Below are positions 2,939 to 49,813 of a DNA stretch of 60,452 nt, piece after piece (the stretch's first letter is position 1; each line of letters opens with the position of its first letter). Source of the DNA: an uncultured Mycoplasmatota bacterium (GTDB lineage Bacteria > Bacillota_I > Bacilli_A > RF39 > UBA660); contig CAMMOI010000002.1 in NCBI GenBank assembly GCA_946498375.1, forward strand, positions 1 to 60,452. The letters are read 5' to 3'. A program made the position numbers and the translations under genes. The notes beneath the pieces are model-generated. The model did no database searches. It saw only the letters and a list, made by a program, of their open reading frames with translations, and was not told the DNA's origin.

Positions 2939-3694
2939 ATGGAATATAATTTTAGTAATGATGTAAAATTATTTATGGTTTTTGATATATTAGGAGATAC
3001 ACAAAGAACAGGTCCTTTACTATGGCAAATAGATAGAAAAAGACTTGAAGATGTTAAAAATCATATATTAGATTTATTGTTGATTGCAAGAATATTAAAA
3101 AAATACTTTCCAACTAGTTTAGATTATAACAAAATTAACGATTATATAATGTGCCATGATTTACCAGAAGCTATAACTGGAGATATAACTAAATTTGAAG
3201 GTGTTTCAAAAGAAGAAATAAAAAGAGTGACAAATTTAGCAATTGATTATTTATCAAATAAATTTGATAATGTATTAAATTTTGGAACGATATTGAATGA
3301 ATATGAAAGTAGAATCGATATTGAATCTAAAGTAGTTAATATGATAGATAAAGTCCATTCTTCTACTACTTTTATAAAATATCAAAGTGAACAAAATATT
3401 AATATGAATGATCCAAGAATTATTCCAGAATTAAGAAATCATCCGTTTGTTGTAAAGAAAATAAATGAAGGAAAAGATTTAGCTGATATTTTCTTTGAAT
3501 TTCATATGATGTCTGTTGATATTACAGATGAAGAATGTGAAAGATATGGTATAAGTCGTGATAATGCAGATAAAATAGTTAATGCCATTAGAGCGTTTGC
3601 TAATGAAATGTATAATCAAAAATTAAATGGAACTCTATTAGATGTAAAAAAAGATTTTCCAAGTGAAGCAATGAAATACAATAGAAACAGATAA
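2939..3694 (+). CDS. HD-domain phosphohydrolase (YfbR-like 5'-deoxynucleotidase family)
   Basis: RBS AAAGGAGGA. Motifs are H (KNHILDLL) ... HD (MCHDLPEAITGDI) ... D, as in HD-superfamily nucleotidases. Confidence 0.65.
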   Translation: MEYNFSNDVKLFMVFDILGDTQRTGPLLWQIDRKRLEDVKNHILDLLLIARILKKYFPTSLDYNKINDYIMCHDLPEAITGDITKFEGVSKEEIKRVTNLAIDYLSNKFDNVLNFGTILNEYESRIDIESKVVNMIDKVHSSTTFIKYQSEQNINMNDPRIIPELRNHPFVVKKINEGKDLADIFFEFHMMSVDITDEECERYGISRDNADKIVNAIRAFANEMYNQKLNGTLLDVKKDFPSEAMKYNRNR

Positions 3695-3840
3695 AAAGTT
3701 ATCAATTTTTGCAAAAAATATGTTCTAATGAATATAGATATTATATCTATTAATTCTGCTTTTGCTTAAGAGTTCAAAATAGGATATGTAATCGTAGCAG
3801 ATTGATATAAAACTTGAACTTTTAGTTTGAGATTAAAATA

Positions 3841-3874
3841 AAAAGATATCAGAGATTTAAATCTGATATCTTTT
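3841..3874. terminator. bidirectional terminator between convergent genes
   Basis: AAAAGATATCAGA / TCTGATATCTTTT, about a 10-13 bp stem flanked by an A-run and a T-run. Confidence 0.7.
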
Positions 3875-3924
3875 GCCATTTTAAAGATACATTTGAATAA
3901 TGTTATGATTGTTATATGGGTATA

Positions 3925-4815
3925 TTAATTATTATTAGTCATCATTGCAATTAATTTCTTTACACTATAATTAGGAGTCTTTTTATCTATAGTGGCGATA
4001 CCAATAAATCTTTTAGGAACTTTAGGAACTACTTCAATCTCATACAATGAGTTATTTTCTAATTCAGTTTTTATAAATTCTTTTGTGGCATATCCAATAC
4101 CAAATCCGGCTTTAACTAAATCCATAATTAAATTATAACTTACAACTTCTAGTTGTGGTTTTAAATTTGCATTATTATCTTTTAAATAATTGTTTAAATA
4201 TGTTCTTGTGTTTGAAGGCAATTTTTGAAAAATTAAGGGAAAAGAATTCAAATCCTTTATATTTAGCTTACCTTTTGTTAAATCATAATACTTTTTATTA
4301 CCAACAAAAATATCTTGTACTTCAGTTAAGAAAGTTATTTTTAAATCTTTAGTTTCATACATTGGCATATTTAAGAATAATATATCAATATTTCCATTTC
4401 TTAATTCTTTAATTAAATCAGTTGTAAGATTATTGACTATTTGGATATCGATTTTAGGATACAATTCATGAAATATTTCAAGATATGGCATTAGAACATG
4501 TCTACAAACTGTAGTTGATGCTCCAATTCTGATAATACCACTATCTAAATTTTTTAAATTAGATAATGCATTTTCACCGTTTGCTATACTTTCTATTCCA
4601 TTTTTAACATAATCAAATAAAACTTTTCCTTCATCAGTTAAAATAACTCCATGTTTTGTTCTTGTAAATAGACTAATACCTAATTGATTTTCTAATTTCT
4701 TTATTTGAAAAGTTATTGCCGGTTGAGATATAAAAAGTGCTTTAGCTGCAGCAGAAATACTTCCATTTTTTGCAACTATATAAAAAATACGATATAAATC
4801 TAAACTAATATTCAT
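3925..4815 (-). CDS. LysR-family transcriptional regulator
   Basis: N-terminal wHTH: MNISLDLYRIFYIVAKNGSISAAAKALFISQPAITFQIKKLE. C-terminal substrate-binding-type domain. The track start is TTG at 4839 and I prefer the ATG at 4815. Confidence 0.85.
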   Translation of the reverse strand: MNISLDLYRIFYIVAKNGSISAAAKALFISQPAITFQIKKLENQLGISLFTRTKHGVILTDEGKVLFDYVKNGIESIANGENALSNLKNLDSGIIRIGASTTVCRHVLMPYLEIFHELYPKIDIQIVNNLTTDLIKELRNGNIDILFLNMPMYETKDLKITFLTEVQDIFVGNKKYYDLTKGKLNIKDLNSFPLIFQKLPSNTRTYLNNYLKDNNANLKPQLEVVSYNLIMDLVKAGFGIGYATKEFIKTELENNSLYEIEVVPKVPKRFIGIATIDKKTPNYSVKKLIAMMTNNN

Positions 4816-4905
4816 AATATAACCATTTCTTATAACCAATATAAATAATATATATTATATTTATATCATATTTTTATGTATACTTCAATTAGGAGAGATA
4901 AAATT

Positions 4906-6177
4906 ATGATTGAAATAGAATATAAAGAAAAAGAAAAAGTAGATAATCTTTATAATCAAATTAAAAATATTATATTATCTAAAAAGGATAATAAAAGTTT
5001 TAACTATAATTACAAACAGCATTCCTTATATGAAGAATTAGAATATCCGGGTATAAGTAAAAATTATTATAACGAAAGTGGAGAAGTTGAATTTGAAAAC
5101 ATTAATGGAAATACTATAAGAATAGAAATTTCTCGCTGGCATGTCCATAAGCATAATGGCTATAGTGGATTAAATGGAATTCCCTGTCTTAGTGCGACAA
5201 TTTATATAGTAGAAAAAGCAGAAAAACATGTAGTATGGGAGTTAAATGTTAGATCAGGAACTTTATATTATAAAGCTAAGATATCAAGTTTAGAAATTCC
5301 AAATGATATTTTGCAAGAAAAACATATTTATTTAGGGGCTAGTATTAAAAAAAATAAAGCAATATCAATGCCAGAAGATAAAATAGAAAAAGAAAGTCAA
5401 ATTATTAAATCGCAAGAAACAAGAATATTATTTGATGAAATTGTAAACTTGTATAATAAATATAAGTTTGCCGAACAAACTAAAGAAAAGCTTTTGTTAA
5501 AAAGGCAACAAGAGATAGAAGAAACAACTGAAAAAATTATTAAATATTATTCTCCAAAACTACTTAAAAATAATGAAGATATTATCGCTATAAAAAAAGA
5601 ATTAAATGATTTTAATAAATTATTTACAAAATACTCAACATTCAATATTGACTTAATTGGACAAGCAATACAACAATTAATGACACTTGTAGAAAGTGAA
5701 GAGTATTTATATAAACAAGTCACATATGTGGTAAAAAAAAGAGTACATGGTGTTATGGATAGTTGGGATGAAGATATGCAAATAAAAGCAAGTATTGTGC
5801 TTAGGAAAGAAAAGTTAATAAATTATTATAATAGTTCATATGAAGATGAAAGCAAAATTAATGTACTCATAAAAAATGAAGCTGCATTATTGTTATTTGA
5901 ACAAGATATAAATAATTATAATAAAAAAATAACTTTTTATACTTTGCAAGATGGCAAGGTTTTGGATAATATTAATTTTGGTAAATTTGATTACATAAAA
6001 GAATTTATAGACAATATAGTTCAATATAGATTTCAAAATAATATGACAGATTTTTCCAAAAAAGATATGCTTTCATTTATGAAAAATTTTTTAATTAAAC
6101 ATAAAGATATTATTATGAAAAATTATGATTCTAAAATTAAAGAAAAAGTATTAAGTTTAAAATTGGATATTTCATAA
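4906..6177 (+). CDS. hypothetical protein (divergent from the LysR gene)
   Basis: ORF 4876..6177. The ATG at 4906 is preceded by AGGAGAGATAAAATT. No recognisable motif. Confidence 0.5.
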   Translation: MIEIEYKEKEKVDNLYNQIKNIILSKKDNKSFNYNYKQHSLYEELEYPGISKNYYNESGEVEFENINGNTIRIEISRWHVHKHNGYSGLNGIPCLSATIYIVEKAEKHVVWELNVRSGTLYYKAKISSLEIPNDILQEKHIYLGASIKKNKAISMPEDKIEKESQIIKSQETRILFDEIVNLYNKYKFAEQTKEKLLLKRQQEIEETTEKIIKYYSPKLLKNNEDIIAIKKELNDFNKLFTKYSTFNIDLIGQAIQQLMTLVESEEYLYKQVTYVVKKRVHGVMDSWDEDMQIKASIVLRKEKLINYYNSSYEDESKINVLIKNEAALLLFEQDINNYNKKITFYTLQDGKVLDNINFGKFDYIKEFIDNIVQYRFQNNMTDFSKKDMLSFMKNFLIKHKDIIMKNYDSKIKEKVLSLKLDIS

Positions 6178-17310: not shown

Positions 17311-17343
17311 AATATGGATTTAATCTTTAAATCCATATTTTTC
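17306..17343. terminator. bidirectional terminator overlapping the 3' end of the GT2 gene
   Basis: 12-bp stem ATATGGATTTAA / TTAAATCCATAT with a 3-nt loop, flanked by an A-run and a T-run. Confidence 0.65.
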
Positions 17344-18252
17344 TTTTATAATATAAACTGGTCTTTTTTTTGTCTCAATATATGTTTTAGATAGATATTC
17401 GCCTAATATCCCTATAGTTATTAGTTGAATGCCACCTAAGAACAATATTGCACACATAATAGTAGGATATCCTGATACAGGATTATTCCAAAAGATTTTT
17501 TCAATTATTACTTCAATAAATAAAAGTAGGGCAATAAATGAAGAAAAAAAGCCAATATAAGTAGCAAGTCTTAAAGGTTTAACACTAAAGGCTAATATAC
17601 CATCTATAGCGTATTTAATACTTTTTTTAAAACCAAATTTACTTTGACCATTTTGTCGCAACTCAACATTATAGCTCATATAACAGGTATTAAAACCTAC
17701 CCACGAAAATAAGCCTTTAGAAAATCGATTATTTTCTGAAAGCTTAACTATAGCCTCAACCACATTTTTACGCATCATTCTAAAATCACTAGCACCATCG
17801 ACAAATTTAACATCGCTTAAAGCATCAAGTAATTTGTAAAAACACCTTTTTAGAAAGATAGTTAGCTTTTTTTCTTTACGATTACTATTTATCATTGCAA
17901 CTTGATCATAGTCTGAATTATGTTCTAAACACTTAATCATTTGAGTTATATATTTAGGATTTTGTTGCATATCAGCATCAATAATACACGTATATTTAGC
18001 ATTAGAATATTGCATACCGGCAAAAATTGCAGCATCCTTATTAAAGTTTCGAGAAAAACTAATTATTTTAGTATGTTTTTTATCTGTTTGATATATGTTT
18101 TTTAACACTGACAAAGTATTATCAATACTACCATCATTTACATAAATTACTGTATAATTAATGCGCTCAAGATTATCTTTAATACTATTATGAAATTGAT
18201 TAATATTCATCTCCTCATTAAAACAGGGAACAATTATATCTAAAGTTTTCAT
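17320..18252 (-). CDS. GT2 polyprenyl-phosphate sugar synthase (CsbB/GtrB-like)
   Basis: LDIIVPCFNEE ... NDGSIDNT ... SRNFNKDAA ... IIDADMQQNP, plus two C-terminal TM helices. This is the GtrB/CsbB architecture. RBS GGTGA. Confidence 0.8.
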   Translation of the reverse strand: MKTLDIIVPCFNEEMNINQFHNSIKDNLERINYTVIYVNDGSIDNTLSVLKNIYQTDKKHTKIISFSRNFNKDAAIFAGMQYSNAKYTCIIDADMQQNPKYITQMIKCLEHNSDYDQVAMINSNRKEKKLTIFLKRCFYKLLDALSDVKFVDGASDFRMMRKNVVEAIVKLSENNRFSKGLFSWVGFNTCYMSYNVELRQNGQSKFGFKKSIKYAIDGILAFSVKPLRLATYIGFFSSFIALLLFIEVIIEKIFWNNPVSGYPTIMCAILFLGGIQLITIGILGEYLSKTYIETKKRPVYIIKEKYGFKD

Positions 18253-18290
18253 TATTACTTCACCATATAAATTATACCACTTTTTTATAA

Positions 18291-18316
18291 AATAAAAATA
18301 TCTACTTTGTAGATAT
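18291..18316 (-). terminator. rho-independent terminator after the A1 subunit gene
   Basis: ATATCTAC / GTAGATAT, an 8-bp stem with a T-run on the minus strand. Confidence 0.65.
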
Positions 18317-18321
18317 CTTTA

Positions 18322-18972
18322 TTAATAAGCACTAGTAGGTGCTGTTGTAGTACCACTTTGATTTTGGTCATTATAATAAATATCTCCAGAACCACTAGTA
18401 GTAACTTCAATTTTTCCTACGAATGATTTACCTTGATTACTATTTTGATTACTAGCTGTTTCTAAAAAGTGAACTTGCATAGTATAAGTATGAGTATCTC
18501 CACCGATTCCTAGTGAACCAGAACCAATAATACCAGCAGCTGTAGGTGCAGTAGCATAACTATTACCTTCGTCATATCCTGGTGCTTCAGTAAAATCTAC
18601 TAAAGTTCCTGAACCTGTTTTTTCACTACTTAATGTATATACTAATTCACTAGTAGGATTAAAGCTATTTGTTACATTTACCCATCTTATATCATATGGA
18701 AGTGCTACAGTGTTGTCTACTGCAGAAATAGTAAACTCTATTTCATTACTATAAGCTCCAGGATAAGCATTGTCCATTTTAATTTCATCCCCATTTTCAT
18801 AGACAATATTTCCTAAAGTTGCAGTATTAACAATTACTGAACTTGCAGTATTATTACCTTGAACACTGGCAGTGAAGTAAGCAAATGTTGCACCCACTAC
18901 AGCAACTAATAACGTTGCAACAGCAATTACAGTAAGTAATACGGTATTTCCTTTTTTTTGATTATCATTCAT
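18322..18972 (-). CDS. SipW-type signal peptide, TasA/camelysin-like secreted subunit, type A copy 1
   Basis: RBS GGAGGAGG. N-terminus K-rich, then TVLLTVIAVATLLVAVVGATFAYFTAS (SipW-cognate signal pattern). C-terminal motif ETASNQNSNQGKSFVGKIEV resembles the N..QG motif of TasA/camelysin. Collinear paralog of 30633..31280. Confidence 0.75.
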   Translation of the reverse strand: MNDNQKKGNTVLLTVIAVATLLVAVVGATFAYFTASVQGNNTASSVIVNTATLGNIVYENGDEIKMDNAYPGAYSNEIEFTISAVDNTVALPYDIRWVNVTNSFNPTSELVYTLSSEKTGSGTLVDFTEAPGYDEGNSYATAPTAAGIIGSGSLGIGGDTHTYTMQVHFLETASNQNSNQGKSFVGKIEVTTSGSGDIYYNDQNQSGTTTAPTSAY

Positions 18973-19067
18973 TTTACTTTCCTCCTCCTATTATCCATAA
19001 TATCAAAAAAGAATTTAAAGATCAATAAAATGTGAAAAAATATGTCAAATGAAAATACATTTTTTAA

Positions 19068-19103
19068 TAAAAAAACATTTATAAAATTCATATAAATGTT
19101 TTT
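19068..19103 (-). terminator. rho-independent terminator after the B1 subunit gene
   Basis: 13-bp stem AAAAACATTTATA / TATAAATGTTTTT. Confidence 0.6.
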
Positions 19104-19111
19104 TCAATATA

Positions 19112-19720
19112 TTAATAAGCTGTTGGTCTAGTTGTAGTACCAGATCTAGCACTATCAGTATAGTAAACGCTGTTTCCTGTGCTATCTGCACTCAATTGTA
19201 GTTTACCACTGAATGATTTACCTTGGTTACTATTTTGATTAGATGCTGTTTCTCTAAAATGAAGTGTTAAAGTACAAGTTTGAGTTACTCCGGCTCCAAT
19301 TGTTCCTGCTACAATATTTTGGGCTGAACTACTAGTTGAAGGTGCAGTAGTTTGAGCTTTTGTGGCTCCGGAATTACTACAAGATATTGAATAAACTAAA
19401 TCCGATTTTACAGCAAAACTATTAGTTACACCTGCTGCCCATTGAATAGTATATTTTAATTGTGTAGCAGAATTGTTTTTAATAGTAAAAGTTTTAGAAT
19501 CACTTGCACCAGGGTAAGCATTTGCTAAATTAATAGTATCTGTGTCTTTAAATGTTAGTGTTAAATTACTTGCAGTTTTAACAATTACTGAGCTTGCAGT
19601 AGTATTTCCAGTTACTGATGCAGTGAAGTATGCATATGTCGCACCAATTACTGCTACAAGTAAAGTAGCAATAGCAATTACAGTTAAAACAATACTATTT
19701 ACTTTCCTTTTATTTTCCAT
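19112..19720 (-). CDS. SipW-type signal peptide, TasA/camelysin-like secreted subunit, type B copy 1
   Basis: RBS AGGAGG. Signal IVLTVIAIATLLVAVIGATYAYFTAS. Shares the HFRETASNQNSNQGKSFSGK motif and a tail ending PTAY. Collinear with the pseudogene 40789..41403. Confidence 0.75.
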   Translation of the reverse strand: MENKRKVNSIVLTVIAIATLLVAVIGATYAYFTASVTGNTTASSVIVKTASNLTLTFKDTDTINLANAYPGASDSKTFTIKNNSATQLKYTIQWAAGVTNSFAVKSDLVYSISCSNSGATKAQTTAPSTSSSAQNIVAGTIGAGVTQTCTLTLHFRETASNQNSNQGKSFSGKLQLSADSTGNSVYYTDSARSGTTTRPTAY

Positions 19721-19768
19721 TCTTTCTACCTCCTACGATAATAATGGTATAAAAAAACAATATAAATG

Positions 19769-22279
19769 TCAATTTTTTTTGCCTTTTTTGCCATTTATAT
19801 TGTAAATTATTGTTAATATTATACCTATTGCAGAAATAGTAAAGCCTAAAATTAAACCTCTTGGTATGTAATCTATTGTAATTATATTTTCTCCTTTATT
19901 TAATTTAATACCAATAAAAGTATCAAAAATTAAATCTGGATCAACTTTTTTACCATTCACTTTAATACGCATTCCTTTTTCATAAGGAATAGAAGTATAA
20001 AGATAATCATAATTTTCATCTTTAACATTAATTTTAGTCTCTAATAAATGTTCTTCATTTATTTTTATATCATTAAAATCATTATATGTAGATAATTTTT
20101 CCATAACATAATTGTAATCTTCTTCTTTCAAATATTTAAATTTTACTATATTAGAGTCTTCTTCACTTTGAACAAAGCTAATATCAAATTTAACTTTATC
20201 ACCTTTTTTTACATATAAATATGAACTATTTAATGTAACTTGCTCATCATTTATATAAACATTAGCACTTGATTTTATATCTCTGTATTGTGGAATTATA
20301 AACATATTTTCTGAGGCAGTAAAACTTACTATTGCTTTTGCTTCTTCATTAATATCAATTTTATCGTATTCATCATAATCTTCATTATAAGCACTATTTT
20401 CTAATTCTATTTGGGCATCAGTAATATAGTAATACAATTTAAGTTCTTCATCTATCATATCTCCATAAATTTTTTCGATATTACTATGAAACTCATTTTT
20501 TGAAAGTTTAGTATCTTTAATATTTTCATTAACTAAAAAAGCTACAGATAATGCATTAGGATTTTGATATAAATTATTTGCCACCATTGAATAATAGTAT
20601 AAATTAGAACCATTAATAAAATATTTAATATTAAATAAAGACATCAAATATGGATCAAAAGATTTTAGTGAAATACTACAATGACTATCTACAATAAAAT
20701 TTAAATAATATTCAGCTAAGTTAATAACTTTTTGATTACGTAATGAGTTAAAATAACTAATTCCATTATAATTAAATAGCATACCATCATTAGAAGTGTA
20801 ACTATCTACCAGTTCTGCTCTATAAAAACTATTATCTAATTGTTTCATAGCATCAACAGTTTTAGAAATAGAATCTTTTGTAATTTTATCAAAAGCCAAG
20901 GTATCTTTATTATTGTTTTCTTTTACATTTATAAATGTATTTAGTCCTAATTCACAAAATATTAATATTAAAATTATATATTTATATTTAGAATTTTTAC
21001 TTTGAAATAAGAAAATATAGTTAATTAATAACAAAATAGAAAAAATTACTATAAATATTCGATATTTTTCTAAATTACTTACTTCTTTTCCAAGCCAAAT
21101 ATAACCAAGAACTATAAAAAGCGTAATGACTACAAATATAAAACATTTAATTAAAATATGAGGTTTGCATTTATTAAAATGCATTAAATTTTTATAAGCA
21201 AGTAACATTAAAAAGAATGATAGGGTAAATGAATAGCGATGTTGCCACCATACTGGACGTTGAAAAAATTGCCATGAATAATCTACTAAATTAAACGTGT
21301 AAGATAATAAATAATATGCCAAAATAATTCCACTAATAATTTTAACTTTAAATTTTATATCTTTATTAAAGAAAAATAGTATTGCTTGAACTACAATAAA
21401 TAAAGTACAAAAATTTTGAGCATAACCATAAGCCACTTGAGAAGAATCATAATTTCCAGGAATAAGAGAATAAATTACATATTTTATATTTTTATTATAA
21501 TCTAAATATTTAGTAAAACTGCTATCGGTGTATCCTTGTGATTTGCCATTTATTAGGGTAAAAAAACTAGGAACTAATACTATAGCTGAAATTAAAATTA
21601 CTAAAAAAGTAGCTATTAAAAATTTTTTTATTATTTGTTTATCTTTATATTTGTTAGTTTCTATTAGTTTATAAATAAAATAAATAATACTAAATATACC
21701 AATCATATATCCGGTATAAAAACATAAAATAATAGCTATACTAAAAGTAATTAAGTAAAAATTAATTTTCTTTTTATCAACAATGTCATTTATACCCTTA
21801 AGTACTAACGGCAACATAATTAAGCCATCTATCCAAAATGTATTATAATAATAAGTGGAAATAAATCCAATTAAAGCATAAATAATACTAAAAACAATAG
21901 ACCATAATTTTTCAGTCTTTTCTTCATGAGATAAAAAATATTGCATTGCAAGAGAACATAAACCGAATTTAAGACTTATAATTATATAATAAAACGTATT
22001 ATATTGATTTATATCAAAAAATTTAATTATCCAATAAATTGGATTTACCAAATAATAAGTAAATGTTCCCAAAAAATTAAATCCAAGACCTAAATTAAAG
22101 GAAAAAAAATCAAAGTTTTGTAAACCGTAAAAAAATCCTTGGTATTGAACTCTAGAATCGTATATACTAATTAAATATTCTCCTAAAGGAGCAATATTAT
22201 TAATTAGTAAACAGATATTAAAAATAATAATAGGAACAAAAAAACATATTAAATATCTTAATACTTTACTTCTTTTCAT
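19769..22279 (-). CDS. YfhO-family (GT-C type) membrane glycosyltransferase
   Basis: About 836 aa. The N-terminal polytopic region has YfhO-type motifs (D.R.QY..FF ... GLGFNF.GTFTYYL.NP). Large extracytoplasmic C-domain and a final TM helix. Start uncertain (GTG 22288 or ATG 22279). Confidence 0.75.
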   Translation of the reverse strand: MKRSKVLRYLICFFVPIIIFNICLLINNIAPLGEYLISIYDSRVQYQGFFYGLQNFDFFSFNLGLGFNFLGTFTYYLVNPIYWIIKFFDINQYNTFYYIIISLKFGLCSLAMQYFLSHEEKTEKLWSIVFSIIYALIGFISTYYYNTFWIDGLIMLPLVLKGINDIVDKKKINFYLITFSIAIILCFYTGYMIGIFSIIYFIYKLIETNKYKDKQIIKKFLIATFLVILISAIVLVPSFFTLINGKSQGYTDSSFTKYLDYNKNIKYVIYSLIPGNYDSSQVAYGYAQNFCTLFIVVQAILFFFNKDIKFKVKIISGIILAYYLLSYTFNLVDYSWQFFQRPVWWQHRYSFTLSFFLMLLAYKNLMHFNKCKPHILIKCFIFVVITLFIVLGYIWLGKEVSNLEKYRIFIVIFSILLLINYIFLFQSKNSKYKYIILILIFCELGLNTFINVKENNNKDTLAFDKITKDSISKTVDAMKQLDNSFYRAELVDSYTSNDGMLFNYNGISYFNSLRNQKVINLAEYYLNFIVDSHCSISLKSFDPYLMSLFNIKYFINGSNLYYYSMVANNLYQNPNALSVAFLVNENIKDTKLSKNEFHSNIEKIYGDMIDEELKLYYYITDAQIELENSAYNEDYDEYDKIDINEEAKAIVSFTASENMFIIPQYRDIKSSANVYINDEQVTLNSSYLYVKKGDKVKFDISFVQSEEDSNIVKFKYLKEEDYNYVMEKLSTYNDFNDIKINEEHLLETKINVKDENYDYLYTSIPYEKGMRIKVNGKKVDPDLIFDTFIGIKLNKGENIITIDYIPRGLILGFTISAIGIILTIIYNINGKKGKKN

Positions 22280-22333
22280 ACTAATCACTATCTAATAGTA
22301 ACAAACAAAAAAGTATTTTTCAATTTAATATGT

Positions 22334-22582
22334 TTATTCTTCTTCAAAAAACTTATCCATGGTTACATTTAAGACAATAGATATTTGATACAGCCTGTAT
22401 AAAGAAATTCCTTCTTTTCCTTTTTGAGATTCAAATCTTCTTAAATAATCAGGAGACATAGATATATCTACTGCTAATTGTTCTTGAGTAATACCGGCTT
22501 TTTTTCGATATTTAATAACATTAGTAGCTATTACTTCTTTAATATTTTCATTAAATTGAAAATCTCTTTTAAAAGTTGTCAT
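22334..22582 (-). CDS. XRE-family HTH transcriptional regulator
   Basis: IKYRKKAGITQEQLAVDISMSPDYLRRFE is a Cro/C1-type HTH. ATG at 22582 follows GGTGAAAG. Confidence 0.75.
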   Translation of the reverse strand: MTTFKRDFQFNENIKEVIATNVIKYRKKAGITQEQLAVDISMSPDYLRRFESQKGKEGISLYRLYQISIVLNVTMDKFFEEE

Positions 22583-22753
22583 AACTTTCACCATTTATAA
22601 TTTTAGCTAAAAGCATAAAATTATTCTGTTAAGTACTACTTATGGCAATAAAAGAAAATTTTGATCTAGATAATTCATAATTTTGTTTAACAACTTGATT
22701 GAATTATAATTATTTGATAATATTTTATATAGATAGAATGAGAGTAGATAACT

Positions 22754-24259
22754 ATGAAGCCAAAAATTTCTAAAGGATTACGTATTTGTGTATTTATAGT
22801 GTTAATAGTTGTTTTAATTTTGGGACTTTCGTATGGATATATGTCTTTTAGTTCTTCTCAAGAAGAAGCTAATCTTTTAAAAAGTGCTTGCTTTGATGTT
22901 ACATATCAAGAAGACGTAGAAGGCGTTAATATGAAATATTACATACCTATAAGTGATGAAGATGCTATGAAGCAAGATGCTTATACAATTACACTAACTA
23001 ATAATTGTCAAGAGCCATTAACATACGATGTGTATTTAAATATTATGAGCGAAAGTTCTACACCTGATAGTATAATTAGAATGAATTATAATGATGAAAT
23101 CGCAAATTTAACTGATTTTAATCAAACTACTGCCCAAGTAAGTGGGGCAAAAAGAGCATATAAAATATCAACAGCTTTTATAGCCCCGGCTCAAACTACA
23201 ACGTTAAGTTTTAGAACCTGGATGTCATCAGAAGTTACAACTGAAGGTCAAAACTCTCAATTTGTTAATAAAATATCAATTAATACCAACGCTATTGAAG
23301 AAAATTTATTAGCAAATAAAATTTTCACTTCTAATACTTTAATAACAGCTACGCCTGATTTTAGTAAAGGCGAGCCACCAAGTAGTACTAGTGTAACTAA
23401 TACGGGAAGTGGTCTTTATATGGCCCAAGATGATGATGGTAATAGTTACTATTTTAGAGGAGCGATAAGTAATAATTATGTGTCCTTTGCCGGATACACG
23501 TGGCGAATAGTGCGTATTAATGGTGATGGAACAGTTAGATTGATTTTAAATGGGGATACTGGAGAGCTTGTTAGTTTTAATAATAACGTTATAAATCATA
23601 AAAATATTGCTTACACATATGATAATACAAGTGCGTGTACGATAAATTCACCATGTATTAGCACATATCATAGTACAACTAAAATATTTACTAATAACAA
23701 AAATGTAACAAATAGTACAATAAAAGAATATTTAGAAAACACTTGGTATCAAGAAATAGCCAATTATGACAAATATATAGCCCAGGGAACTTTTTGCAAT
23801 GATACTAGCATAACTAATTCTTCAGGGACAACTAATTATTATGGTGCTTATCAAAGAGTATACGTTGATAATGAGCCTACTTTAAAGTGTCCCGCTACTG
23901 ATCAAACTTATGGAGGGTATTATAAAAGCAAAATAGGATTATTATCAGTTGATGAATTAGTAATGGGTGGATACAGTATAGAAGGAAACACTAATAATAA
24001 TTTTTTATATTCCAGTGATGGTAGCTTTTGGAACATGAGCCCTGGATTTTCTGAAAGTTCAACTGTATATTCTGGAGGAGTTTTTAATGGTAATACTAAC
24101 GGTAATGTAGATAGTTTTAATGTATTAAACGGTTTAAGTGGTAGTTATTTATTTACTTCTGATAAGCTAGGTGTTCGACCTGTTATAAATCTAAGATCGG
24201 ATGTAGCCATCGCCTCAGGAGATGGAACAGAATCTAATCCTTATGTAGTTGAAACTTAA
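22754..24259 (+). CDS. secreted modular protein: SipW-type signal, TasA-like module, then a C-terminal domain of unknown function
   Basis: Signal CVFIVLIVVLILGLSYGYMSFSS. Module motifs YTITLTNNCQEPLTYDV and GQNSQFVNKISI. The C-domain has YTWRIVRINGDGTVRLIL, KIGLLSVDELVMGG, FWNMSPG and LGVRPVINL. Confidence 0.6.
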   Translation: MKPKISKGLRICVFIVLIVVLILGLSYGYMSFSSSQEEANLLKSACFDVTYQEDVEGVNMKYYIPISDEDAMKQDAYTITLTNNCQEPLTYDVYLNIMSESSTPDSIIRMNYNDEIANLTDFNQTTAQVSGAKRAYKISTAFIAPAQTTTLSFRTWMSSEVTTEGQNSQFVNKISINTNAIEENLLANKIFTSNTLITATPDFSKGEPPSSTSVTNTGSGLYMAQDDDGNSYYFRGAISNNYVSFAGYTWRIVRINGDGTVRLILNGDTGELVSFNNNVINHKNIAYTYDNTSACTINSPCISTYHSTTKIFTNNKNVTNSTIKEYLENTWYQEIANYDKYIAQGTFCNDTSITNSSGTTNYYGAYQRVYVDNEPTLKCPATDQTYGGYYKSKIGLLSVDELVMGGYSIEGNTNNNFLYSSDGSFWNMSPGFSESSTVYSGGVFNGNTNGNVDSFNVLNGLSGSYLFTSDKLGVRPVINLRSDVAIASGDGTESNPYVVET

Positions 24260-24325
24260 TATAATGATTTAGTAATTCATAAAATATTATGAATTGCTTT
24301 TACTATTAAAGAATAGAGGTATATT

Positions 24326-27300
24326 ATGAAAATTAAAGATGGAAATAAAGCAGTATCTGATGTTGCTTATCTTTTTAGTGAATTATGTGCAATTTATCCT
24401 ATAACGCCATCTTCTCCAATGGCATCTAATATAGATAATTTAGCTATTAAAAATCAAAAAAATATGTTTGGGGATACAGTTAAGGTTATTGAAATGCAAA
24501 GTGAGGCAGGAGCGGCTGGGACTTTACATGGTGCTTTAAGTGCTGGAATATTAGCTAGTACTTTTACATCATCTCAAGGATTACTTTTAATGATTCCTAA
24601 TATGTATAAAATAGCCGGGGAAATGTTACCAGCTGTATTTCATGTTGCAAGTAGAAGTATTTCGACTCATGCTTTATCAATATTTGGCGATCATCAAGAT
24701 ATTTATGCAACTAGACAAACTGGATTTTGCATGTTAGCTTCTTCCTCTGTAGAAGAAGCTCAAAGTATGGCTGCCATTGCTCATTTATCTGCAATAAGTT
24801 CTAGCTTGCCTTTTTTACAATTTTTTGATGGATTTAGAACTAGTCATGAAATTAATACTATTGATGATTTTCCAACTGATAAAATTATTAATTTAGTTGA
24901 TAAAGAAAAAATTAATGAATTTCGCTCTAGAGCTTTAAATGTTGGAAATAATATTCAAAAGGGAATGGCTCAAAATGAAGACATTTATTTTCAAACTACA
25001 GAGGCTCGTAATTTAAATTATGAACAAGTTCCTAACATAGTAGAAAATTATATGGATAAGATTAATGAAATAATGAATACTAATCTAAAACCATTTAATT
25101 ACTATGGTGATAAAAATGCTGAGAATATTATTATAGCTATGGGAAGTGTTTGTGACACTATTAGATTGGTTGTAGATGATTTAAATAAAAAGGCTCAAAA
25201 AGTAGGAATGATTGAAGTTCATTTATACCGACCTTTTTGTAAAAATTATTTAAAAAAGGTATTACCAAAAAGTGTAAAAAATATTGCTGTATTAGATAAA
25301 ACAAAAGAAGCTGGTTCAATTTATGAACCACTATGTTTAGATGTTATTGCCTCATTAAAAGATATGTCTTTAAATATTGTTGGCGGAAGATATGGATTAT
25401 CTTCTAAAAATGTTTCACCAGCTCAGATAAAAAGTGTTTTTGATATGTTAAAAAATAAATTACAAGATCACTTTGTAATAGGAATAGTAGATGATGTAAC
25501 TAATTTAAGTTTACCACTGTCTGATTATAAATTAAATGTAAAGGCAAATGAAGTTGTAGTTTACGGTTATGGTAGCGATGGAATGGTAAGTGGATGTAAA
25601 GAAATAGCAACAATTGTAAATACTGTTAATAATAAATTTGTTCAAGCTTATTTTGAATATGATTCTAAAAAAAGTGGCGGGGTTACTAAAAGTTCTTTAA
25701 GAATTGGCAAAGAAAAAATTAAAGCACCATTTTACATTGATAATCCTAAATGTGTAGTCATTACTAAAGATGATTATTTACATATGTTTGATACTATATC
25801 TAATATTAAAGAGTATGGGTTAGTTTTATTAAATACAACTCATGAAAAAGATATAGATGATTTCTTACCTAACAGTTTTAAAAAAAATATTATAGATAAG
25901 CATTTAAAATTGTTAGTTATCGATGCTTATAAGATAGCAAATAAATATAATTTAAGTGGTAAGATCAGTAAAATTATGGAAATTATTTTATTAGAATTAT
26001 TAGGTGTTAGTGATGCTATAAGCATTTTAAGTGAACAAATAAGGCAAAAATTTCAGACTAAAGGTAGGGATGTAATTGAAAATAATATTAAAGCAATTGA
26101 AAACACCTTAGATAAAGTGGTTTTAATAGATGAAGATTTAAATGTAATTGATGAAAAGCCTCATTTTAGTCATAGTATATTTGATATAATTGAAAGAAGA
26201 GAGGGAAACACTCTAAAGGTAAGTGATTTATTAGAGTATGCAGATGGTGCAATTCCTTGTTCATTTTCTAAACATAGCAGTAGTGTTAAAGTAAGTAAGA
26301 TTCCACACTGGAAAAGTGAAAATTGTATTCAGTGTGGAAAATGCTCTTTTGTATGTCCTCATGGAGTTATAAGACCATTTATTGTTAAAAAGGGAGGAAT
26401 ACCTTTACTTGGTGATAAAACTAATTTAAAACAATTTTTAATTGGCATTAATGGAGATAAGTGTACTGGATGTGGTTTGTGCATTAATGTTTGTCCAGGA
26501 ATTTCTAATAAGAAAGCTTTGAGCTTTGGTAAAAATACAACATCAACTTATGTTAAAGAACTATTTGAAAGTCATGAAAATGAAGTTCCAGCTAATATTT
26601 TCAATGTAAAAAACAGTCAATTAATGAGACCAAAATTTTGTTATTCTGGAGCTTGTGCTGGTTGTGGTGAAACCTCTTATATAAAATTGTTAACGCAGTT
26701 ACTGCAAGAAAAATTAATTATAGCCAATGCTACTGGATGTTCAAGCATATATGGTGGAAGTATGCCAAATACAGTGTATAATATTCCTTGGGCAAGTAGT
26801 TTATTTGAAGATAATGCTGAATTTGGTTATGGGATTTATATGGCTTATAAAACATTACGAAATAGAATTAGAAATTTAATGACTAGCACTTATGAGTATG
26901 TTGATGAACAAGTAAAAAAAGAGTACGATAAATATTTTAATAATTTTGATGATTATAAAATTACTTTACAAGTAAAGCAAAATCTAGAAAAAAGTAGTAT
27001 TCCATCTTCTTTAAAAAAATTGCTTAATTATATTCCAGCCAGAGATGTATGGTGCATTGGTGGTGATGGTTGGGCATATGATATTGGCTTTAGTGGTATA
27101 GATCATATTTTATCTAGTAATGAAAATATTAATATTTTACTTTTAGATACTGAAAGTTATTCTAATACTGGAGGCCAAGCCAGTAAAGCAACAAGTAAAG
27201 GAGCTATAGCTGAATTTGCTAGCAATGGTAAAAAGACTAATAAAAAAGATTTATTTAAAATGGCTATGTCTTATCCAAATGTTTATGTTGCAAGTGTTAG

Positions 27301-27667
27301 TTTAATGGCTAATAATAATCAATGTATCAAAGCTTTTAAAGAGGCAATTGAACATAAAGGCCCATCAATAATTATAGCTTATAGCACTTGTATTGAGCAG
27401 GGTATTAAAAGTGGAATGGCTACTTCTTGTAATCAGCAAAGCGCTTTAGTAAATTGTGGATATTTACTTCTTATGCGTTATAGTAATAATAAATTATATT
27501 TAGATTCTAAAGAACCAGATTTTGAAAAATACGAAGAAGTCTTAAATCAAGAAGTAAGATATAATGCTTTAATGATAAAAAATAAAAAGCAAGCCCAAAC
27601 TTTGCTTGCTTTAAATAAACAAAATGCGATTGATCGATATAACTATTTTAAAAACTTAGCAGAATAA
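24326..27667 (+). CDS. nifJ: pyruvate:ferredoxin (flavodoxin) oxidoreductase
   Basis: 1113 aa. N-terminal PFOR domain (AYPITPSSPM). Two 4Fe-4S ferredoxin motifs (CIQCGKCSFVCPH and CTGCGLCINVCP). TPP-binding GGDGWAYDIG. Confidence 0.9.
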   Translation: MKIKDGNKAVSDVAYLFSELCAIYPITPSSPMASNIDNLAIKNQKNMFGDTVKVIEMQSEAGAAGTLHGALSAGILASTFTSSQGLLLMIPNMYKIAGEMLPAVFHVASRSISTHALSIFGDHQDIYATRQTGFCMLASSSVEEAQSMAAIAHLSAISSSLPFLQFFDGFRTSHEINTIDDFPTDKIINLVDKEKINEFRSRALNVGNNIQKGMAQNEDIYFQTTEARNLNYEQVPNIVENYMDKINEIMNTNLKPFNYYGDKNAENIIIAMGSVCDTIRLVVDDLNKKAQKVGMIEVHLYRPFCKNYLKKVLPKSVKNIAVLDKTKEAGSIYEPLCLDVIASLKDMSLNIVGGRYGLSSKNVSPAQIKSVFDMLKNKLQDHFVIGIVDDVTNLSLPLSDYKLNVKANEVVVYGYGSDGMVSGCKEIATIVNTVNNKFVQAYFEYDSKKSGGVTKSSLRIGKEKIKAPFYIDNPKCVVITKDDYLHMFDTISNIKEYGLVLLNTTHEKDIDDFLPNSFKKNIIDKHLKLLVIDAYKIANKYNLSGKISKIMEIILLELLGVSDAISILSEQIRQKFQTKGRDVIENNIKAIENTLDKVVLIDEDLNVIDEKPHFSHSIFDIIERREGNTLKVSDLLEYADGAIPCSFSKHSSSVKVSKIPHWKSENCIQCGKCSFVCPHGVIRPFIVKKGGIPLLGDKTNLKQFLIGINGDKCTGCGLCINVCPGISNKKALSFGKNTTSTYVKELFESHENEVPANIFNVKNSQLMRPKFCYSGACAGCGETSYIKLLTQLLQEKLIIANATGCSSIYGGSMPNTVYNIPWASSLFEDNAEFGYGIYMAYKTLRNRIRNLMTSTYEYVDEQVKKEYDKYFNNFDDYKITLQVKQNLEKSSIPSSLKKLLNYIPARDVWCIGGDGWAYDIGFSGIDHILSSNENINILLLDTESYSNTGGQASKATSKGAIAEFASNGKKTNKKDLFKMAMSYPNVYVASVSLMANNNQCIKAFKEAIEHKGPSIIIAYSTCIEQGIKSGMATSCNQQSALVNCGYLLLMRYSNNKLYLDSKEPDFEKYEEVLNQEVRYNALMIKNKKQAQTLLALNKQNAIDRYNYFKNLAE

Positions 27668-27906
27668 AAAAAGAAACTGCCCCCCTGAAGAGCAGTTTCC
27701 AAAAAGAATAAAAAGGGGTTGGCTAGTGTGATACTAGCACCAATTCGCCTTAAAAGTGAATTGGTGCCTTATATACTAATGGAAAAGGTGTGAAAAGTCA
27801 ACACTTTTTTTTAATTTTTTAACTTTTTTAAATATATCTCTTTTTGGTTTTAAAAGATAGACAAATAAATGTTTGTTTTATATAATAAAATTATAAGTAA
27901 GGTGTT

Positions 27907-29898
27907 ATGATGCAATTAGAACAAATCTCAGGAATTGGCCCTAAGATGTTAGAAAATTTAGCAAAGTTAGGAATAAATTCATTTGAAGAGTTAATAACTT
28001 ATTATCCATATAAATATTTAGTGTTAAGACCTAATTCTATTTACTCTTTGGAAAATGGTGGGGTATTAGTAGGGAAAATTGATAGTATTGCAAGAGTAGT
28101 TTATATTAAAAAAAATTTGAATTATTTAACATTTAGAGTTAATAGCAATAATAATTTAGTAAAAATAATTATTTTTAATAGAGCCTTTTTAAAATCAAAA
28201 TTAAAAATTGGCAGTGATATAACTTTAATTGGAAAGTATGATAAACAGAAAAATACTTTTACAGCAAGTGATATTCGTTTTTATAAATTAACTAAAACTT
28301 TAATTGAACCTAAATATCATTTAAATAGTGGTATTAAAAATAATAATTTTCTTAAAATAATTAATAACGCTTTAGTTCAAAACTTTGATTTAGTAGATTA
28401 TATTCCAGTATATTTATCTAAGACATATAATTTTTTAGATAAAAAAAATGCTGTTAAAATAATGCATAAGCCTTTAACAAGTGCTAGTTTAAAACAAGCT
28501 AAGTTAAGACTAATATATGAAGAATTATTTGTATTTACATTTAAAATTAATTATTTAAAATTCAAAAATACAATTAATTCGAGTAGTTTAAAAAGAGATA
28601 TTGATTGTGAGCAAATTAAATCATTTATTGATCAGTTACCTTTTGCACTTACTTCAGATCAAACTACAGCTGTAGAAGAAATTATAAATGATTTTAATAG
28701 TAAAAAAAGAATGAATAGATTAATTTTGGGGGATGTTGGTAGTGGTAAAACGATTGTAGCATTTATTGCTTTATATGCTAATTATCTAAATTCATATCAA
28801 GCAGCTATGATGGCACCTACTGAAATTTTAGCTAAACAGCATTATGAGGCAATAAATAATATTTTTTCTAATTATAATATTAAGACTGCTCTTTTAATAG
28901 GAAGTTTAACCAAAAAAGAAAAAGTAAAAATAAAATCTGATATTTTAAATAATAAAATTGATATTTTAATTGGTACTCATGCTATTTTATCAGAAGATTT
29001 AGAATTTAAGAACTTAGGTTTAGTTATAACTGATGAACAACATCGTTTTGGCGTAAACCAACGAAGTTGTTTGCAAAATAAAGGCCAAAAACCTGATGTA
29101 TTATATATGAGCGCTACGCCAATTCCAAGAACATATGCCTTAAGTTTGTATGGTGATATGGATACTTCACTTATTAAAACTAAACCTAAAGGACGTAAGC
29201 CGGTAAAAACTATAGTAAAGAAAAATGCTGAAATAAAAGATGTTTTACATCAAGTATTAGAACAATTAAAAATGGGTCATCAAATATATATTGTAGCTCC
29301 AACTATAGATCAAAATAGTAATGAATTAGAAAATGTAAATCAGTTAAAAGAAAAATTTAATAAAGCTTTTAATAATATTGTTAAAATTGGAGTATTACAT
29401 GGTAAGCAACAGCCATCATTAAAAGAACAGATAATGTTAGACTTTAAAAATAAAAAATATAACATTTTAATTTCTACGACAGTAATAGAAGTGGGAATTG
29501 ATGTAGAAAATGCTACGATGATTATTATTTTTAACGCAGAACGTTTTGGTCTTGCAACACTACATCAATTACGTGGAAGAGTAGGTAGAAATTCATTTGA
29601 TTCTTTTTGCTATTTAATTAGTGATCAAAATCCAGAACGTTTAAAAGTTTTAGAGAGTAGTAATGATGGTTTTTATATAAGCGAGCAGGATTTCAAACTT
29701 CGTGGTGAAGGAGATTTGTTTGGAACTCTTCAAAGTGGAGATATGAATTTTAAAATAGCTAATTTACAAAGAGATTACAAAATCTTAATTCAAGCTAAAA
29801 AGGATTCTTTAGAGTTTTTAAAAAATAATATTGAAAGTAATTTTAAAAATGAAAAAATATATTCAAATATTATATCTAAAATGGATTTAATTGATTAA
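27907..29898 (+). CDS. recG: ATP-dependent DNA helicase RecG
   Basis: Wedge/OB N-domain. Walker A GDVGSGKT, DEQHRFG, TATPIPRT and QLRGRVGR. Confidence 0.9.
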   Translation: MMQLEQISGIGPKMLENLAKLGINSFEELITYYPYKYLVLRPNSIYSLENGGVLVGKIDSIARVVYIKKNLNYLTFRVNSNNNLVKIIIFNRAFLKSKLKIGSDITLIGKYDKQKNTFTASDIRFYKLTKTLIEPKYHLNSGIKNNNFLKIINNALVQNFDLVDYIPVYLSKTYNFLDKKNAVKIMHKPLTSASLKQAKLRLIYEELFVFTFKINYLKFKNTINSSSLKRDIDCEQIKSFIDQLPFALTSDQTTAVEEIINDFNSKKRMNRLILGDVGSGKTIVAFIALYANYLNSYQAAMMAPTEILAKQHYEAINNIFSNYNIKTALLIGSLTKKEKVKIKSDILNNKIDILIGTHAILSEDLEFKNLGLVITDEQHRFGVNQRSCLQNKGQKPDVLYMSATPIPRTYALSLYGDMDTSLIKTKPKGRKPVKTIVKKNAEIKDVLHQVLEQLKMGHQIYIVAPTIDQNSNELENVNQLKEKFNKAFNNIVKIGVLHGKQQPSLKEQIMLDFKNKKYNILISTTVIEVGIDVENATMIIIFNAERFGLATLHQLRGRVGRNSFDSFCYLISDQNPERLKVLESSNDGFYISEQDFKLRGEGDLFGTLQSGDMNFKIANLQRDYKILIQAKKDSLEFLKNNIESNFKNEKIYSNIISKMDLID

Positions 29899-29936
29899 AA
29901 AAAGGGTATATAATATAGTTATTAGAGGTGAAGAAG

Positions 29937-40576: not shown

Positions 40577-40616
40577 AAAAGTTCGAATAATTCGAACATA
40601 TTTCTAAAATGGTGCC
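40577..40616 (-). repeat. tRNA-Leu 3' end plus terminator hairpin; partner of the inverted copy at 189..227
   Basis: Includes hairpin GTTCGAA-tta-TTCGAAC followed by TTTT (read in the tRNA orientation), which acts as the tRNA terminator. Confidence 0.75.
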
Positions 40617-40696
40617 TGTGGTGGGAGTCGAACCCACACGATATTGCTATCACTGGATTTTGAGTCCAGCGCGTCTACCAATTCCGCCACACAGGC
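40610..40696 (-). tRNA. tRNA-Leu (anticodon CAA)
   Basis: Cloverleaf read by hand. Acceptor GCCTGTG/CACAGGC, anticodon arm CTGGA-CTCAAAA-TCCAG, long variable arm, T-arm GTGGG-TTCGACT-CCCAC, encoded CCA. Confidence 0.9.
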
Positions 40697-40788: not shown

Positions 40789-41403
40789 TTAATATGGAGA
40801 AGGAATAGTTGTAGTTCCACCATCTGATGTTGCATAATCAGTATAATATACTTCATCTCCATTATCAGTTGCACTTAATTAAAGACGAGCTGCAAAAGTT
40901 TTCCCTTGGTTACTATTTTGATTAGCTCCAGTTTCTTTAAAATGAAGTGTTAAAGTACAAGTTTGAGTTACACCAGAATTAATAGTTCCTGATATAATAT
41001 TTTGAGCATTAGTACTTGTAGATGGTGCAGTAGTTTGAGAACGATTAGGACCAGAGTTATTACAAGATATAGAATATACTAAATCTGATTTTACAGCAAA
41101 ATTATTAGTAAGTCCAGCTGCTCACTGAATTGTATAAGTAAGAGGAATATCAGCATTATTTTTTATTTCAAATGTTTTAGATGCACTTGCTCCTGGATAG
41201 GCGTTAGTTAAATTTATTGTATCAGTATCAGCAAATGAAAGCGTTAAATTTTTAGCTGTAGTTACAATAACAGAACTTGCAGTAGTATTTCCCGTAACTG
41301 ATGCAGTAAAATATGCATAAGTCCCGGCAATTAAAGCCACCAATATAGTTAAAACAACAACTAGAGTTAAAACAATATTTTTATTAATTATCTTATTACT
41401 CAA
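40789..41403 (-). pseudogene. type B TasA-like subunit, copy 2, disrupted by two in-frame nonsense codons
   Basis: 205 codons collinear with 19112..19720. TGA (41122-41124) sits where the paralog has Trp (IQWAAG). TAA (40879-40881) sits where it has Gln (KLQLSA). TTG start follows AGGAGA. Confidence 0.8.
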
Positions 41404-49565: not shown

Positions 49566-49617
49566 AAAGTGGCTAAAAATAGTTGAATAAAATATTTTAA
49601 TTTATTATAATAAAAGC

Positions 49618-49813
49618 AAGCGATGAAAAAAGAGTAGTAATATAATAATGCTTTATAAGAAAGCTAGTGGTTGATGTAAACTAGTAAGTAAAATTATATG
49701 AACTTGCTTTTGGATGTGATGGGCTAATCTCCCTTATAGATATCAAGGTAAGTAATACTTGCAAATTAAGGTGGTACCACGGCATTTCGTCCTTAGGAGA
49801 AATGTCTTTTTTT
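49618..49813 (+). promoter_or_regulatory. T-box leader with Leu (CUU) specifier and a terminator
   Basis: Stem I elements AGCGATGA, AGAGTAG, AGAAAG and GGTTGATGTAAA. Candidate specifier GAA-CTT-G at 49703-49705. T-box sequence AAATTAAGGTGGTACCACGG (49763-49782). Terminator CATTTCGTCC/GGAGAAATG followed by T7. Confidence 0.8.

Follow-up and report, generated by a model that had tools for sequence, protein, structure and literature searches.

Gene organisation of the locus

Contig CAMMOI010000002.1 of an uncultured Mycoplasmatota bacterium (assembly GCA_946498375.1; 60,452 nucleotides, about 24% G+C, referred to here as the window) carries a cluster of five genes on the minus strand, in the order XRE regulator, YfhO-family membrane glycosyltransferase, secreted subunit B1, secreted subunit A1 and GT2 polyprenyl-phosphate sugar synthase, spanning positions 17320–22594 (Table 1). 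This order is the one given in an initial annotation of the region, which also placed the start of the cluster correctly but set its end at 22582, 12 bases short of the end of the XRE gene. The YfhO protein belongs to a discrete clade most of whose genes lie beside those of secreted subunits dependent on a SipW-type signal peptidase, and this clade-specific linkage emerged from comparative genomics.

The GT2 protein contains a DAD motif at residues 92–94 and two C-terminal transmembrane helices at residues 227–256 and 262–287, its predicted architecture being that of the undecaprenyl-phosphate sugar synthases CsbB, GtrB and PgfS. The YfhO protein aligns with positions 2–835 of the 835 of the PF09586 profile at 457.5 bits (cutoff 28.5) and has about ten or more transmembrane segments, an extramembrane domain of about 350 residues and a C-terminal transmembrane segment. 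Residue Asp44, a candidate catalytic residue directly after the first transmembrane segment, is invariant in nine clade members and stands in the context YDS, with no canonical DXD motif. The best NCBIfam model for GT2 was PgfS, at 296.9 bits against an equivalog cutoff of 500 that was not reached, and YfhO scored 232.7 bits with PgfM2 (cutoff 1500) and 189.1 bits with PgfM1 (cutoff 1400). Since these scores are far under the equivalog cutoffs, both enzymes are, as judged from sequence, family members and not orthologues of PgfS, PgfM2 and PgfM1 of Streptococcus mutans. A search for solved structures of YfhO relatives found none. A distant YfhO homologue of 1035 residues (P0308) is fused to a GtrA-like domain (PF04138), a family of putative lipid-linked-sugar flippases; no GtrA-like gene was seen in the cluster of the window.

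Both B1 and A1 are followed by an AT-rich hairpin with a U run behind it, and the two hairpins, already proposed as terminators in the initial annotation, fold strongly in comparison with shuffled sequences. They were missed by a consensus terminator scan because that scan demands at least three G-C pairs. Promoter-like elements precede each of B1, A1 and GT2; each subunit gene has a promoter-like site and a hairpin of its own. By analogy with the cnm–pgfS terminator of S. mutans, which is read through, the hairpin after A1 is probably leaky, and GT2 is probably expressed via read-through and/or its own extended –10 element. An Rfam scan found no regulatory RNAs between 17 and 34 kb of the window.

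The neighbours of the cluster include the envelope genes FemAB, a class-A beta-lactamase-like gene and VanY; in other assemblies of the same species A1 is likewise followed by GT2, the beta-lactamase-like gene and FemAB, in this order. Contig breaks in these assemblies (L151–L155) tend to fall between B1 and A1, just 5' of A1, which is likely to be explained by the paralogues A1/A2 and B1/B2 acting as assembly repeats.

Table 1. Genes and sequence elements of the locus in the window.
Feature	Position	Strand	Evidence and remarks
GT2 polyprenyl-phosphate sugar synthase, GtrB/CsbB/PgfS type, 310 residues	17320–18252	minus	PF00535, E 2.5e-25, 89.8 bits
Extended –10-like element TGgTATAAT	18271–18279	minus	18 nt 5' of GT2 start codon; consensus match only, not evidence of function
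AT-rich hairpin with U run after A1, intrinsic-terminator-like	18291–18323	minus	–13.1 kcal/mol, z –6.1, 0/200 shuffles as good
Subunit A1, 216 residues	18322–18972	minus	SipW-type signal peptide, GNNTASS N-terminal motif, beta-sandwich core, Thr-rich tail
AT-rich hairpin with U run after B1	19068–19106	minus	–13.3 kcal/mol, z –5.2
Subunit B1, 202 residues	19112–19720	minus	SipW-type signal peptide, GNTTASS motif
Promoter-like site TTGACA-17-TACCAT for B1	19744–19772	minus	Overlaps YfhO stop codon; consensus match only
YfhO-family GT-C membrane glycosyltransferase, 839 residues	19769–22288	minus	PF09586, E 1.4e-136; fibre-linked clade
XRE/HTH_3 regulator, 86 residues	22334–22594	minus	PF01381, E 3.1e-9; 5' of YfhO
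P501, secreted protein, 501 residues	22754–24259	plus	N-terminal signal-anchor resembling SipW type; divergent from XRE; possible further locus member
Subunit A2	30633–31280	plus	73% identical to A1; directly 5' of SipW
SipW-type (archaeal/ER-type) signal peptidase I	31372–32109	plus	TIGR02228, 103.9 bits (cutoff 51.85)
P444, secreted glycine-rich protein	32212–33546	plus	PF12810, E 9.8e-8
B2, pseudogene copy of B1	40789–41403	minus	In-frame TGA 41122–41124 (conserved Trp codon) and TAA 40879–40881 (Gln position)

A YfhO clade linked to subunit genes

The linkage was analysed in both directions. In the forward test, one genome per species was scanned with the subunit alignment, which gave 79 loci, all of them from uncultured Bacilli or from gut metagenome-assembled genomes (MAGs) labelled 'Tenericutes'. 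The most frequent layout was one to several subunit genes followed by SipW, and YfhO and/or GT2 immediately adjoined the subunit genes in 11 of the 79 loci, in four arrangements. In the reverse test, metagenomes were scanned with the YfhO alignment and 58 loci were picked regardless of subunits. Subunit and SipW genes were adjacent in 13 of about 17 loci whose YfhO homologue scored at least about 330 bits (at least 32% identity), versus none of about 40 loci with lower-scoring homologues, some of which have the classic upstream GT2. In the samples picked by YfhO alone, 16 of 19 clade members stand directly beside genes of SipW-dependent subunits, as against none of about 42 homologues outside the clade. 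Context look-ups in a third sample found YfhO genes linked at 32, 35 and 36% identity and unlinked at 29%.

A neighbour-joining tree of 63 full-length YfhO proteins placed all linked genes in one clade, with 27 linked and two unlinked members (L094 and L095); its sister, L140, has no linkage to subunit genes, and the 33 proteins that fall outside the clade are all unlinked. The clade, with 31–62% identity to YfhO of the window, is found only in metagenomic material. In a large protein database 36 proteins reached at least 349 bits, followed by a score of 285 and then by scores of at most 222 bits, streptococcal YfhO among them; all 36 come from MAGs or metagenomes, and no cultured carrier was found. 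On its far side YfhO is flanked, depending on the lineage, by XRE, GT2, TsaD, an amidase, a large secreted protein or a beta-lactamase-like gene; the junction between YfhO and the subunit gene persists. Conservation of the adjacency in relatives, the comparison suggested in the initial annotation, is thus borne out: in most relatives, including those with a YfhO identity of only about 32%, and through several gene orders, this YfhO lineage adjoins the genes of SipW-dependent subunits.

The exact order of YfhO, subunit(s) and GT2, on which the initial annotation had laid weight, recurs in the two closest lineages, L160 (YfhO 62% identical) and L084 (53%), but elsewhere YfhO is followed by GT2 or has no GT2 nearby. 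In L145–L148 YfhO is directly next to GT2, alongside the putative fibre operon, and the split is therefore regarded as a derived state of the adjacent pair. An HTH_3/XRE gene is kept 5' of YfhO only in L160, where the order is XRE, YfhO, GH3, subunit and GT2, and not in L084 or L080. The glycoside hydrolase family 3 (GH3) gene of L160, at positions 3623–4996 of that locus, lies on the opposite strand between YfhO and the subunit–GT2 pair. As a separate observation, a clade YfhO (L089, 1–5900) and the sister with two tandem YfhO genes (L140, 260–10300) are next to genes resembling those of Tad/Flp-type pili, namely a CpaF-like ATPase, TadB/C-like proteins and a short Flp-like prepilin (MKEATGELNMTV...), as judged by eye from N-terminal sequences only.

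Homologues of GT2 at 52–58% identity number in the thousands and are very widespread, and one of them stands alone beside a ribosomal operon. These observations rule out a fibre-specific GT2 subfamily; of the two enzymes, only YfhO is specifically associated with the fibre locus.

Properties of the secreted subunits

Subunits A1 and B1 start with a SipW-type signal (...GATFAYFTAS...), A2 lies directly 5' of sipW, and subunit homologues adjoin sipW in most of the 79 loci. The family comprises about 1978 homologues at E <=0.001, not one of which is named. With TIGR04088 the subunits scored slightly below the cutoff of 19 bits (17.9 for A1, and 16.2 and 18.1). With PF12389 (cutoff 22.5 bits) A1 scored 18.3 bits and B1 31.7 bits, the latter match covering only profile positions 9–78 of 196, and 37 of 99 family members matched this profile at E <0.001. 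An hhalign comparison with TasA of Bacillus subtilis, the sequence of which was confirmed to be identical to 8AUR, gave a probability of 2.9% over 65 N-terminal columns that hold the signal peptide and the first strands only; within the N-terminal part, the subunit motif L-x-N-x-x-PG...F-x-V aligns with TasA.

AlphaFold (AF2) models built on a 99-sequence alignment predicted a beta-sandwich core with a predicted local distance difference test score (pLDDT) >90. In the monomer the first 20 or so residues past the predicted SipW cut were disordered and the C-terminal tail was of moderate confidence. Foldseek searches of the PDB with the full-length and the mature model returned nothing at E <=0.001, and TasA and AbpA were missing from the top 50; the weak top matches, with TM-scores of about 0.3, were the donor-strand pilins FimA/FimG and carbohydrate-binding jelly rolls (carbohydrate-binding module and PA14 domains). 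A profile search of the PDB with the subunits gave at best archaeal AbpX at E of about 0.2. A TasA fold is not supported for the subunits, since the Foldseek searches with both models lacked a match to TasA or to the archaeal bundling pili. The term TasA-like, used for the subunits in the initial annotation, fits only their N-terminal third, where B1 passes the PF12389 cutoff. A more fitting description is that of secreted beta-sandwich proteins which depend on SipW and are distant relatives of the TasA/camelysin family. That they form fibres is plausible; the disordered mature N-terminus of the monomer model and the weak fold matches to donor-strand pilins are indirect hints toward donor-strand exchange.

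Candidate acceptor sites

The Ser/Thr stretches that had been put forward as possible glycosylation sites are present, TAPTAAG at residue 141 of A1 and TTAPSTSSS at residue 124 of B1, as are the C-terminal tails SGTTTAPTSAY and SGTTTRPTAY, but as acceptors they do not track YfhO. The internal TAPTAAG loop of A1 is ordered in the AF2 model (pLDDT >90). The Thr-rich tail (YYNxxNxxGTTTxP) was rejected as the acceptor, being common in loci without YfhO and absent in many linked subunits. It occurs in A1, A2 and B1 and in the subunits of L015, L022–L024, L030, L033, L038, L040, L048, L053 and L064, and many of the subunits carrying it have no YfhO within 10 kb.

A different pattern was found for the motif GNxxASS, which lies among the flexible first 20 or so residues of the mature A1, A2, B1 and B2 (positions 18835–18855 of the window for A1). 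It is present in 24 of 28 YfhO-linked loci, compared with one of the 41 unlinked loci whose flanks could be seen (Fisher p 2e-13, kinship ignored). Candidate peptides of A1, A2 and B1 for hexose or N-acetylhexosamine on Ser/Thr would include YFTASVQGNNTASSVIVNTATLGNIVYENGDEIK and the C-terminal peptide.

The second half of the locus and other features of the window

About 8 kb (22300–30600) separate the YfhO half of the locus from the half that contains A2, SipW and P444; this gap holds XRE, P501, an open reading frame (ORF) of 1113 residues with the size of a pyruvate:ferredoxin oxidoreductase (a likeness in size only), RecG and a DUF975 protein. In L084 the halves are contiguous: one strand carries GT2, a single subunit gene and YfhO, the opposite strand a pair of subunit genes together with SipW and P444. 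The 8 kb in the window therefore represent a lineage-specific interruption. The two halves are likewise contiguous in L080.

Weak homologues of P501 are found near fibre loci in relatives. P444 lies 3' of SipW in a position that is syntenic in L001, L080, L084 and L087, and has Ser/Thr runs such as STTTASPTGSTSSS. It carries, as does its counterpart in L080/L156, a glycine-rich domain of the ALK/LTK type (PF12810) behind a SipW-like signal, and is kept in close relatives. The pseudogene B2 adjoins a tRNA-Leu(caa) gene at 40610–40696. An alternative genetic code, considered for B2 in view of the TGA at a Trp position, was ruled out, since the second stop, TAA, is at a Gln position and all the other genes fit table 11. 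Elsewhere in the window, a T-box leader on the plus strand (49615–49797; 98.7 bits, gathering score 93) precedes a small ORF and an ORF of 941 residues (50186–53011), which by eye reads like a leucyl-tRNA synthetase.

Proposed function and alternative explanations

The best explanation of the region is that it forms one half of a surface-protein locus conserved among uncultured gut Bacilli. This locus combines SipW-processed subunits related to camelysin/TasA with a dedicated two-enzyme glycosylation system using a lipid-linked sugar. From the clade-specific gene linkage and the streptococcal precedents we infer, with a probability of roughly 0.55, that YfhO of the window, fed by a GT2, glycosylates the exported subunits. 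GT2, to judge from its family, DXD motif and architecture, would load undecaprenyl phosphate, at the cytoplasmic side of the membrane, with a sugar taken from a nucleotide sugar, and the lipid-linked sugar would be flipped across the membrane. Outside the membrane the YfhO-family GT-C enzyme would then transfer the sugar to Ser/Thr residues of the emerging subunits, a step suggested by the linkage and by the pairs PgfS/PgfM1 and GtrB/PgtC2. By analogy with Cnm and PrsA, glycosylation would shield the subunits from gut proteolysis or tune their assembly.

Several observations weigh against this interpretation. There is no direct evidence of a glycan, and close YfhO relatives in model organisms decorate teichoic acids (PMC5836110). 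Both a flippase and a sugar epimerase are missing from the cluster. GT2 is of a generic, very widespread type that occurs alone, and most linked lineages have no GT2 near YfhO (L080/L087, L003 and the L088–L126 group). Since the linked loci are confined to related uncultured Bacilli, vertical inheritance accounts for part of the conservation. The Ser/Thr fraction and the richest 12-residue Ser/Thr window show no difference between linked and unlinked subunits (p 0.10 and 0.53, respectively), and the conserved Thr-rich C-terminal tail is found mostly in loci without YfhO. As a candidate YfhO acceptor, GNxxASS is a lead rather than a finding because its association was computed without correction for shared ancestry and because it coincides in position with the donor strand of TasA, where a glycan would be awkward. 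In a more far-reaching proposal, which we consider rather doubtful, the YfhO clade would act on this N-terminal motif and glycosylation, or binding by YfhO, would gate or stabilise polymerisation. The outcome would be a SipW-dependent fibre controlled by glycosylation, which has its own GT-C enzyme, lacks TapA and is widespread in uncultured gut Bacilli.

Among the alternatives, decoration of lipoteichoic acid (LTA) or wall teichoic acid (WTA), as by CsbB/YfhO, is unlikely but has to be taken seriously; the fibre would then be anchored to or assembled on the glycosylated polymer, or the genes would merely share an envelope neighbourhood. YfhO homologues add sugars to LTA in B. subtilis and to WTA in Listeria (PMC5836110), FemAB, the class-A beta-lactamase-like gene and VanY are neighbours of the cluster, and both the generic GT2 and the lack of a discriminating Ser/Thr signal in the linked subunits are consistent with it. 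However, the linkage is specific to subunit/SipW genes and persists where TsaD/TsaE, an amidase or other genes replace the envelope neighbours, YfhO genes from outside the clade, including those in classic GT2–YfhO pairs, are never beside subunit genes, and teichoic-acid synthesis genes were not seen in the locus. It is improbable, furthermore, that YfhO serves another SipW-dependent product, such as P444 or the P501-like proteins of 500–700 residues, instead of the small A and B subunits. Large proteins with a subunit-like N-terminus are indeed convergent with or next to YfhO in L089, L091, L092, L097, L111 and L126, and P444, with its Ser/Thr runs, follows SipW in close relatives; these large proteins are nevertheless confined to some lineages, whereas the small subunit is the only gene class always beside a clade YfhO.

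The frequent absence of GT2 from the locus, the co-occurrence of the GNxxASS segment with YfhO, the extramembrane domain of some 350 residues and the lack of a recognised TapA-like gene in the loci would also suit a non-catalytic or additional role of the clade YfhO in the fibre, as a membrane platform or as a chaperone for the N-terminal donor segment that replaces TapA. Such a role is considered quite improbable: the architecture is common to the whole YfhO family, the clade shows no variation at Asp44, in the first outer loop, or at many further positions, as would be the case for an enzyme, and a non-enzymatic YfhO is without precedent. The adjacency might, finally, be mere synteny inherited in one bacterial lineage, with no functional link, as the restriction of the linked loci to MAGs of related uncultured Bacilli and the NMT1/ABC and FemAB/beta-lactamase-like flanks shared by several of them could suggest. 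This is very improbable, since YfhO and the subunit gene remain neighbours at YfhO identities as low as about 32%, and do so despite inversions, changed outer neighbours and inserted genes (GH3 in L160, or subunit genes that separate YfhO from GT2); only two clade members have lost the junction.

If the subunits are indeed the acceptors of YfhO, extracytoplasmic protein glycosylation of the YfhO type, so far demonstrated only for streptococci, would gain a second class of substrate in the SipW-processed, TasA-related matrix or fibre proteins. The clade would then be one whose substrate is predictable from gene context, which would help to assign acceptors to the many YfhO paralogues of Firmicutes, and the modified structure would be on the surface of abundant uncultured gut Bacilli, where it probably meets host proteases and immunity. 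The clean gene linkage yields a testable substrate prediction for this clade, and subunit, SipW, YfhO and GT2 form a compact gene set that can be tested heterologously.

Comparison with known systems

One of the closest known systems is Pgf of S. mutans (pgfS, pgfM1, pgfE, pgfM2 and cnm/cnaB/cbpA), in which the GT2 enzyme PgfS and the YfhO-domain proteins PgfM1 and PgfM2 modify the adhesins Cnm and WapA, cnm lying inside the pgf cluster and being co-transcribed with pgfS through a leaky terminator (PMC5856776). It shares with the window the combination of a GT2 with a YfhO-domain GT-C enzyme, the inclusion of (here presumed) substrate genes in the cluster, a hairpin between substrate gene and GT2 gene, and the fact that PgfS, PgfM2 and PgfM1 are the top-scoring NCBIfam models for the window proteins. 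In contrast, the cluster of the window has no epimerase and only one YfhO, its host belongs to the uncultured gut Bacilli, and the role that LPxTG adhesins with their long Thr-rich repeats play in Pgf as substrates would fall to beta-sandwich subunits processed by SipW. PgfS and PgfM1 add N-acetylgalactosamine to extracytoplasmic, Ser/Thr-rich disordered segments, and such segments, often terminal, are glucosylated in S. pyogenes and S. pneumoniae by GtrB and the YfhO-family PgtC2; both modifications shield the segments from proteolysis (PMC12041528). GtrB/PgtC2 resembles the pair of the window in joining an undecaprenyl-phosphate-sugar synthase to a YfhO-family GT-C enzyme, with one sugar moved in streptococci; the streptococcal enzymes, however, serve many unlinked membrane-protein substrates, whereas the YfhO clade of the window is tied to one locus, and streptococcal YfhO is only 25–27% identical to YfhO of the window.

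CsbB–YfhO attaches N-acetylglucosamine (GlcNAc) to LTA in B. subtilis, the Listeria YfhO homologue Lmo1079 is responsible for GlcNAc on WTA, and the GT2 and YfhO genes are normally neighbours in one operon (PMC5836110). The same two families and the same three-step lipid-carrier logic would operate in the window, and the adjacent pair has its parallel in L145–L148; the acceptor of CsbB–YfhO and Lmo1079 is teichoic acid, whereas here the pair is interrupted by genes of secreted proteins or stands beside them, and its YfhO forms a separate clade. The tapA–sipW–tasA operon of B. subtilis is similar in that a SipW-type peptidase gene stands beside genes for small secreted proteins with SipW signals, but the similarity ends after about 65 columns and no TapA-like gene was recognised here. 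To our knowledge, glycosylation of TasA has not been reported, and among the publications searched none mentions YfhO together with TasA.

Ppm1/Pmt of actinobacteria, with which the initial annotation had compared the pair, consists of a polyprenyl-phosphate sugar synthase and a GT-C transferase that act on secreted proteins during export. It differs in that its transferase belongs to the GT39 PMT family rather than to YfhO and in that mannosylation is Sec-coupled. The analogy is sound in its general logic, but a closer comparison is offered by the streptococcal systems, in which the same mechanism has been established experimentally (PMC5856776, PMC12041528). The GT2/YfhO mechanism is thus of a known kind and less surprising since the streptococcal work; the novelty lies in a discrete clade of YfhO proteins whose genes are tied to SipW/TasA-like loci.

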